Shown here: in pieces, positions 29,582 to 29,886 of the stretch
Numbering within the stretch: the first letter of the stretch is position 1
Layout: each line of letters opens with the position of its first letter
From: a virus
Taxonomy: Duplodnaviria; Caudoviricetes
IMG/VR virus record: IMGVR_UViG_3300028025_000089
DNA length: 64,000 bases
Strand: one strand, 5' to 3'
Translations under genes and position numbers: made by a program
The notes under the pieces: model-generated
What the model saw: the letters and a program-made list of their open reading frames with translations, nothing else
Told to the model about the DNA's origin: nothing
Database searches by the model: none

Positions 29582-29589
29582 TATATTTG
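29582..29589 (+). promoter_or_regulatory. Host-type -7 element upstream of the leader/tRNA operon
   Basis: TATATTTG; an ATATTTAT copy also lies at about 29621. Confidence 0.65.
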
Positions 29590-29634
29590 TAAAGAAATTA
29601 AAACTTTTATAAAAAACAATATATTTATAACGAA

Positions 29635-29742
29635 ATGAAAACAACTCTCATACATATGGTCATTTGTAATCAGCCGAGCACGAAGTGGTCGTTTGGCTAT
29701 AATACGCTAAAAGAGTCGAGGGTATTTTCACTTATGAGTTAA
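29635..29742 (+). CDS. Putative attenuator leader peptide (35 aa)
   Basis: MKTTLIHMVICNQPSTKWSFGYNTLKESRVFSLMS between promoter and terminator. Confidence 0.6.
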   Translation: MKTTLIHMVICNQPSTKWSFGYNTLKESRVFSLMS

Positions 29743-29772
29743 AAACGTTTAACAACATAATAAAAGGAATGT

Positions 29773-29808
29773 AAAACCCGAGACATAAAAATCTCGGGTT
29801 TTTTGTTT
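29773..29808 (+). terminator. Strong terminator (attenuator candidate) just upstream of the tRNA cluster
   Basis: AAAACCCGAGA/TCTCGGGTTTT plus T-run, ending 6 nt before tRNA-Thr. Confidence 0.85.
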
Positions 29809-29814
29809 TATATT

Positions 29815-29886
29815 GGTCTCTTAGTTTAACTGGAAAAATACGTGTCTTGTAAACATGAGTTATCGGGTCAGTTCCGATAGGGACCT
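29815..29886 (+). tRNA. trnT: tRNA-Thr(UGU)
   Basis: Cloverleaf, loop CTTGTAA; atypical T-loop GTCAGTT. Confidence 0.85.

Follow-up and report, generated by a model that had tools for sequence, protein, structure and literature searches.

A rare-codon leader frame and an intrinsic terminator at the head of a phage tRNA array: a candidate transcription attenuator

The DNA considered here, IMG/VR virus record IMGVR_UViG_3300028025_000089, is a 64,000-nucleotide stretch (hereafter the window) of a Caudoviricetes virus, AT-rich and carrying 23 tRNA genes in three blocks. At the head of the main tRNA block a promoter is followed by a 35-codon open reading frame (ORF), an intrinsic terminator and then tRNA-Thr. 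A first-pass annotation, made by a model from the letters alone, had described this module, and every feature was recovered where it had been placed or within a few bases of it. The same annotation had proposed that the module is an attenuator gating the tRNA operon. The open frame, its rare codons, the terminator and the position at the head of the array all stood up to scrutiny, whereas a family-wide antiterminator and an AGCCGA/TTGGCT hairpin did not.

With a probability of roughly 45%, we take the module to be a conserved cis-acting leader between a host-type promoter and the main tRNA block, acting as a ribosome-mediated transcription attenuator that gates this block. We only infer that termination would be decided by the speed of translation, and likewise what signal would be sensed.

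Relatives of the module and its place at the array head

Relatives were collected from IMG/VR and from metagenome contigs using the upstream gene, short invariant DNA words, and the RNase H-like ORF of the tRNA array followed by nhmmer. The 116 hits gave 62 distinct full-length versions of the module. The first alignments, of 7-10 close relatives, contained zero covariation and put structure beyond test; the divergent copies were obtained through the RNase H-like ORF and nhmmer. The 20 bases at 29735-29754 were fixed by ascertainment in the metagenome pattern search, and their conservation was therefore not counted as evidence. Related contigs came from freshwater samples and reached 304 kb, and the module family is one of large freshwater Bacteroidetes (jumbo) phages, widely distributed. 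BLAST of the region against GenBank phages returned similarity at the level of tRNAs only and no relative of the leader.

The module and the array head go together. tRNA-Thr(UGU) begins 10-14 nt past the T-run in 61/62 versions, and the element is carried by every relative whose contig extends to the start of the Thr-Gln-(Ser)-Pro-Lys... block (44/44 loci). Only two relatives that lack the block have enough upstream sequence (L106, which is G001, and L119), and both are without the element. What is missing from them is the whole module, namely promoter, leader, terminator and 13 tRNAs from Thr to Phe, which suggests gain or loss as one block. In G001, the nearest record (38% of sampled words common), the segment corresponding to 29552-31303 is absent and the upstream gene directly adjoins the RNase H-like ORF, which in the window sits inside the array. 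The sole version without an adjoining tRNA-Thr (L069, 289-792, minus strand) continues into a 79-aa ORF and then tRNA-His, and the end of an 88-aa ORF takes the place of the usual upstream promoter. One relative has its array reduced to tRNA-Thr alone.

The promoter that the first-pass annotation had placed upstream of the leader ORF is of Bacteroidetes type. It consists of TTG at 29560 and TATATTTG at 29582-29589, and its wording (TTG..AATTAAAA..TATATTTGTA) returns in near-identical form about ten times in the window, before genes and before other stable-RNA units. The consensus across the window, TTG-N17-21-TAnnTTTG(TA), is the Bacteroidetes -33/-7 form, and because of these roughly ten near-identical sites we regard it as a Bacteroidetes-type host promoter and not as a classical sigma-70 promoter. 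With C permitted for the third T and A for the final G, it was matched in 57/62 versions. We infer a transcription start near 29594; the distance from the -7 box to the ATG is 45 nt in the window and 37-53 nt in relatives.

No promoter-like site with a TAnnTTTG box was found in the window between the leader ORF or terminator and tRNA-Thr, in agreement with the earlier statement that no clear promoter lies between terminator and tRNA. A promoter built from the T-run of the terminator, or from the TTGACA of a boxA-like sequence, was considered and rejected, there being no TAnnTTTG box at a usable distance.

That boxA-like motif, GTTCTTTGA, occurs six times in the window (27596, 29898, 32041 and 38767 on the plus strand, 40816-40808 on the minus strand, and 2673). 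Four copies lie 8-65 nt past the host-type promoters of stable-RNA units, including two other tRNA blocks; the copy at 29898 lies just past tRNA-Thr, and that at 2673 is seemingly in coding sequence. Among relatives the motif is found 79-105 nt past the element in 51/52. It fits the gamma-proteobacterial boxA consensus GYTCTTTAANA at 10/11 positions (PMC5725501). If the boxA reading is right, the ORF, terminator and tRNA-Thr inserted between promoter and boxA are the only difference of this unit from its siblings, a placement which supports the promoter at 29560 feeding the array with the terminator in its way.

The copy at 32041 belongs to a second promoter in the tRNA region (31947-32060), and between this promoter and the motif lies a 9-bp G+C hairpin (GGGGGTGAG...CTCACCCCC) that has no T-run. 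The order of hairpin and boxA is reminiscent of boxB-boxA, and the unit is also present in G001, right after the RNase H-like ORF.

The leader frame and its codons

The first-pass annotation had made its reading depend on conservation of the leader ORF, and the frame is intact in 62/62 versions, with 34-36 codons, the same start and end, and 43 distinct peptides. Insertions and deletions in the ORF are of 3 nt or multiples of 3 only; in the untranslated parts they are of 1-7 nt. On a FastTree tree, parsimony counted 75 synonymous and 183 nonsynonymous substitutions and 0 stops. About 4.5% of possible single changes create a stop, and 0 stops in ~258 events has a probability of ~7e-6. The crude ratio of nonsynonymous to synonymous rates (dN/dS) is ~0.55, and changes at codon positions 1/2/3 number 73/84/101, far flatter than in ordinary genes. 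This record of substitutions indicates that the frame is under selection to stay open; the ORF is therefore probably translated, and constraint on the peptide is, by the same counts, mild.

An open frame of this kind could also belong to a small-protein gene of 34-36 aa that stands alone, under a promoter and terminator of its own; the tRNAs would then be made by constitutive leakage or from unrecognised promoters. This is the main rival, and we consider it unlikely, though stronger than the others. Besides the open frame and the dN/dS, it would account for the fixed positions of the peptide (M1, H7, M8, P, W, Y, T, R, S and F, with free variation elsewhere) and for a promoter and an A-rich start context like those of neighbouring protein genes. 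However, variable sites are spread nearly evenly over the codon positions, and conservation of the untranslated parts is on a par with that of a tRNA gene (mean pairwise identity 75-79%, compared with 73% for the tRNA-Thr gene). Moreover, the 35-aa product had no match in Pfam, its best match in PHROGs was at E=0.66 and its best score in the ESM Atlas was 0.77, and the supposed gene is always attached to tRNA-Thr and lost along with the block.

Codon choice is a further point at which a small gene fits poorly. As a baseline, 20,000 random 35-codon stretches were taken from the phage's own 31 long ORFs. The codon adaptation index (CAI) of the leader is 0.30, whereas phage genes have 0.71±0.08 and 0 of 20,000 stretches were as low. 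The G+C content of third codon positions (GC3) is 0.49 against 0.23 in phage genes (P=0.0006), the number of distinct codons 28 against 21.3±2.8 (P=0.006) and that of distinct amino acids 18 against 14.9±1.9 (P=0.056). The count of 18 amino acids and 28 different codons given by the first-pass annotation is correct, and for the phage it is unusual. About a third of the leader codons occur at <4 per 1000 in phage genes (CTC, GTC, CAG, CCG, AGC, ACG twice, TCG twice, GGC and AGG).

The richness in G/C-ending codons had likewise been noticed in the single sequence, and it persists in all relatives. All of the distinct coding sequences (46/46) have a CAI of 0.30-0.48, far outside the range of phage genes, and contain 5-10 G-ending codons besides ATG and TGG. 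CCG at Pro14 and ACG at Thr25 are each held in 44/46 of these sequences, AGG at Arg31 in 40/46, TCG at Ser19 in 39/46 and CAG at Gln17 in 35/46, and in two alignment columns the amino acid changes while the codon stays rare, with G or C as third base. Judged from the alignment, the conserved rare codons fit selection for slow decoding and nucleotide-level constraint alike. The last seven codons, which overlap region 2 of the pairing described below, have about three-fold fewer synonymous events per codon than the remaining ORF.

The amino-acid make-up is also unlike that of a phage protein. The consensus peptide is without A, D, E and G, which make up 26% of phage proteins, and 0/200,000 random 35-residue windows of phage proteins lack all four; their near absence speaks against a small-protein gene. 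The tRNAs for A, D, E and G never occur in the first block. Among single versions, A occurs in many and D, E or G in some, and the peptide of the window has G and E; the earlier remark that Ala and Asp are missing fails in relatives. Changes creating one of the four residues are mildly under-represented (17/180 observed, 13.5% expected, P=0.06), and the shortage is equally well, and more simply, described as a lack of GNN codons. The idea that the amino acids of the peptide are exactly those of the downstream tRNAs was rejected, as arrays vary widely without matching changes in the peptide.

Conservation of the peptide is strongest at its C-terminus (invariant SRVFS.MS) and at a Trp 17 residues upstream, and a hairpin lies over the stop codon. 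A nascent-peptide arrest leader would have these properties: in answer to a ligand or state, the peptide would halt the ribosome that makes it, on or close to the stop codon, and so set the fate of the terminator, as in TnaC or SecM. However, the C-terminal codons do not vary at synonymous sites either, and the RNA may thus be what is constrained; stalling at the stop codon, moreover, would promote termination, an outcome that muddies the regulatory logic. We consider arrest the least probable of the explanations weighed here, and very unlikely.

The stalling sequence of TnaC is HI(C/S)VTSKWF (PMC8450073), and residues 7-20 of the leader peptide (29653-29694, HMVICNQPSTKWSF) resemble it loosely in the stretch HMVIC..STKWSF. 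The spacing is unlike that of TnaC, and the likeness is probably due to chance because only the Trp of this stretch is conserved in relatives.

Terminator, alternative pairing and transcripts

The strong terminator described right before tRNA-Thr was found with a gap of 5 nt between the end of its T-run (29809) and the tRNA (29815), where 6 nt had been claimed. Its stem (29773-29783/29792-29802) is G+C-cored, with ~-15 kcal/mol. Structure statistics were taken from a 57-sequence alignment (A4), in which 96.5% of the terminator cells are paired and both sides have changed at four pairs; GAGA/TCTC, for example, is replaced by GAAC/GTTC, AAGG/CCTT or TAAC/GTTA. All versions have a terminator energy of -11 to -18 kcal/mol and a T-run of 6-9, and we regard the terminator as real because of the compensatory changes. 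For the hairpin over the stop codon the paired share is 95.9% of cells; in 18 sequences both partners of an A-U pair have been exchanged to give U-A, and the most divergent clade has a different hairpin at this position. The AGCCGA/TTGGCT hairpin is present in the window and is not conserved, with 65.7% of cells paired and one pair failing in 43/57 sequences.

The distance from the stop codon to the terminator stem is 30 nt in the window and 28-32 nt in 61/62 versions. In E. coli, a ribosome on the stop codon represses the terminator directly at short distance and termination is maximal beyond ~27 nt, and amino-acid attenuators have stop-to-terminator spacings of >20 nt (PMC4824070). At 28-32 nt, a ribosome at the end of the ORF would therefore cover region 2, melt the stop-codon hairpin and leave the terminator free.

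The 3' end of the ORF (region 2) can pair with the flank and 5' arm of the terminator (region 3), giving a candidate antiterminator. Such a pairing had been proposed from the single sequence; it exists, strong in one clade and moderate in that of the window, but it is weak in others and is not a family-wide feature. In the window, the duplex of 29715-29731 with 29771-29784 has -12.0 kcal/mol, compared with -8.2±2.0 for dinucleotide shuffles (P=0.043). The most divergent clade (L123, L098, L094, L114) has a duplex of 13-14 bp in the same register as the weaker pairing of the window, joining the end of the ORF to the terminator flank and 5' arm (GUCUUUCAUUU with AAAUGAAAGAC, plus CGG:CCG), with -17.5 to -23.9 kcal/mol and z of about -4 to -6. 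It contains a U-A to C-G double change, and inside this clade a G-C to C-G change in the duplex tracks a change in the terminator stem.

Folds of the nascent RNA, taken from codon 21 up to the loop of the terminator, had one nested topology in all clades, in which the pairing of region 2 with the arm encloses the stop-codon hairpin; the probability of an occupied arm was clearly above shuffled controls in the divergent clade only. For leaders free of ribosomes, the predicted partner of region 2 depends on the clade: in some it is the arm (probability 0.44-0.75), in others ORF sequence further upstream (0.6-0.8). By these predictions, an attenuator-type alternative structure is possible in every clade and convincing in one. 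A permutation test of cognate against non-cognate binding appeared significant and was discarded, as a clade-by-clade matrix showed that one clade drives the result.

The leader was present in eight metatranscriptome runs from several studies. Contigs X15 (29632-29897) and X17 (29624-29846) run from the ORF interior through the terminator into tRNA-Thr in the window's own sequence, and X33 (29674-29816, continuing to 29893) and X34 (29664-29825, continuing as unlike sequence) cross the terminator in relatives with a differing tRNA-Thr. These four span the terminator by at least 31 letters on each side, X34 only if the unlike tRNA continuation is counted; X32 (29710-29816) reaches only the first bases of the tRNA. 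The contigs show that joined leader-tRNA molecules exist in RNA libraries, which the small-gene explanation would equally expect of a leaky terminator. The upstream gene (29135-29550) is covered by none of the eight runs, which proves little given the greater divergence of that gene between relatives.

With its own promoter and strong terminator, the ~215-nt transcript could itself be the product, a phage small RNA, possibly dual-function and coding, that acts in trans. It could act through a conserved A-rich single-stranded stretch ahead of the terminator, and its position would reflect a shared neighbourhood of stable RNAs. Nucleotide-level conservation over the untranslated regions and the 3' end of the ORF, conserved hairpins with covariation, a fold z-score of -4.1 and the occurrence of the transcript in the eight runs are all consistent with this. 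It gives no reason, however, for a 35-codon frame that stays open through ~258 substitutions and several indels, and strict adjacency to tRNA-Thr is left unexplained. Rfam 15 covariance models gave no match in 29590-29814 at E up to 1, the only hits being tRNAs. A trans-acting small RNA is in our judgement improbable, though less so than peptide arrest.

Several results weigh against a ribosome-mediated attenuator. Most concern the antiterminator, which in roughly one third of the family is weak and does not surpass shuffles. In the middle clades (L044, L095, L124, L130, L136, L139) the duplex has -5 to -8 kcal/mol, and that of the window is not significant with a wider arm and mononucleotide shuffles (P up to 0.3). 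Over the alignment the antiterminator helix is paired in 81.6% of cells, with a covariation score of 0.120 where slid controls gave 0.125 and 0.131, and beyond one clade a region 2 does not systematically bind best to the terminator arm of its own leader. The alternative helix of the start-codon region with region 2 (AUGAAAA with UUUUCAU) is 94% paired but invariant, with zero covariation.

The leader and its surroundings add further points on this side. The leader has no run of any single regulatory codon, its rare G-ending codons being scattered instead. The peptide has conserved residues, which a pure sensor of translation speed would not need; the first-pass annotation had expected codon diversity rather than peptide conservation, and the peptide proved moderately conserved. 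From relative to relative the arrays differ greatly in the tRNAs they contain, yet the leader is unchanged. Phage-specific promoters of another consensus may exist. The RNA evidence consists of assembled contigs, in which DNA carry-over is possible and which give no ends, amounts or regulation.

Proposed mechanism, known systems and neighbouring features

If the module is an attenuator, it might work as follows. RNA polymerase would start at the host-type promoter, and a ribosome would translate the 35-codon ORF, full of codons that the phage avoids, many of them G-ending. A ribosome keeping pace to the stop codon would cover region 2, the terminator would fold, and transcription would end before tRNA-Thr. 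Under slow decoding, for example with the ribosome held on the rare codons at positions 13-19, region 2 would be exposed and could pair with the 5' arm of the terminator, and the polymerase would continue. It would then transcribe tRNA-Thr, pick up the boxA-like site and go on through the array. With no ribosome at all, region 2 could pair with the start-codon region instead.

As to the signal, the leader might be a sensor of decoding speed, in which scarce decoding capacity opens the terminator and accumulated phage tRNAs close it, making it a multi-codon feedback attenuator; we regard this as a tentative and rather doubtful extension. The conserved rare codons CCG, ACG, TCG, CAG, AGG and AAG can be read by the downstream U34 tRNAs for Pro, Thr, Ser, Gln, Arg and Lys. 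Under such feedback, scarcity could arise from an unsuitable host tRNA pool, from tRNA-cleaving defences or simply early in infection. The pan-codon sensor of host tRNA loss by anticodon nucleases, as proposed in the first-pass annotation, is a conjecture that goes further than these comparisons.

The closest known systems are the attenuators of amino-acid operons (trp, his, leu, thr, pheA) and of a tRNA synthetase (pheM-pheST). They share with the module a short promoter-proximal ORF, an intrinsic terminator more than 20 nt past the stop codon, and a segment at the end of the ORF able to pair upstream or with the 5' arm of the terminator. The module differs in that phage tRNAs would be regulated and not biosynthetic or synthetase genes, in its many scattered rare codons in place of a single-codon run, in an antiterminator that is not conserved across the family and in a moderately conserved peptide. 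T-box riboswitches also couple the state of the tRNA pool to a choice between terminator and antiterminator, as proposed here. They bind uncharged tRNA directly, work independently of translation, and are marked by a conserved specifier loop and a T-box sequence; neither is seen here.

The leaders of tnaC and pyrBI likewise have a short ORF ending near a termination signal, and the tna leader has a boxA-like sequence nearby. However, tna relies on Rho and on tryptophan-induced arrest, and in pyrBI the ribosome blocks the terminator directly at a very short distance, unlike the spacing found here. In boxA antitermination leaders of the rrn type the motif stands just past the promoter, as in the other stable-RNA units of the phage, whereas in the module the ORF, the terminator and tRNA-Thr all precede it; any binding of Nus factors here is putative. 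The tRNA region of phage T4 contains co-transcribed small stable RNAs, and it resembles the present locus in combining a phage tRNA cluster with a small non-tRNA transcript. To our knowledge, the T4 small RNAs are not translated leaders with a terminator ahead of the cluster.

A search of full-text literature found no described control of tRNA genes by a leader peptide, and we know of no described case of phage or cellular tRNA genes behind a translated leader and terminator. If the attenuator exists, the synthesis of phage tRNAs would be coupled to how well the infected cell decodes. Why phages carry tRNA arrays, and what controls these arrays, is debated, the proposals being codon compensation and escape from tRNA-cleaving defences (PMC10264068, PMC11464382). 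Even as a small gene with a leaky terminator, the module would be a well-defined element: in its 62 versions a rare-codon ORF goes with a conserved promoter, two covarying hairpins and a boxA-like site.

The coordinates of the module and of the tRNA block are collected in Table 1.

Table 1. Features of the leader module and of the tRNA block that follows it, in window coordinates
Feature	Coordinates	Strand	Remarks
Host-type promoter (TTG, 19-nt spacer, TATATTTG)	29560..29589	+	1 of ~10 TTG-N17-21-TAnnTTTG sites in the window
5' untranslated leader	29592..29634	+	A-rich ahead of ATG; mean pairwise identity 75% over 62 versions
Leader ORF, 35 codons	29635..29742	+	Rich in phage-rare codons
Region 2, 3' end of the ORF	29715..29733	+	Candidate antiterminator 5' strand; alternatively pairs with start-codon region
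Hairpin over the stop codon, six bp	29738..29753	+	GTTAAA/TTTAAC
Region 3, flank and terminator 5' arm	29768..29784	+	Candidate antiterminator 3' strand
Intrinsic terminator	29773..29809	+	11-bp stem, 8-nt loop, T6-G-T4
tRNA-Thr (UGU)	29815..29887	+	First gene of the main tRNA block; ARAGORN, Rfam
boxA-like motif GTTCTTTGA	29898..29906	+	
Remaining first tRNA block	29924..31915	+	Gln, Ser, Pro, Lys, Tyr, Asn, Ile, His, Arg, Trp, Phe, RNase H-like ORF, Cys, Leu

The first tRNA block stops at the next promoter (31947). The ORF within it (31304-31759, 151 aa) matches the Pfam family RNaseH_like PF04308 (E=3e-26) and is kept in 59 related contigs. Three further tRNA-like sequences lie in the surroundings. 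At 32160-32260 an acceptor-like stem is accompanied by two TTCGA T-loop arms, and ARAGORN makes no call. ARAGORN calls a tRNA with an 8-nt anticodon loop (ggaa) at 32358-32433 and a tRNA-Asn with the unusual anticodon ATT at 27946-28019, both with low Rfam scores (36 and 39 bits, respectively). Two neighbouring ORFs have signal-peptide-like N-termini, one matching DUF2927 (26810-27574; PF11150, E=1e-23) and the other, on the minus strand, matching the CAP/cysteine-rich secretory family (28054-28563; PF00188, E=9e-7).

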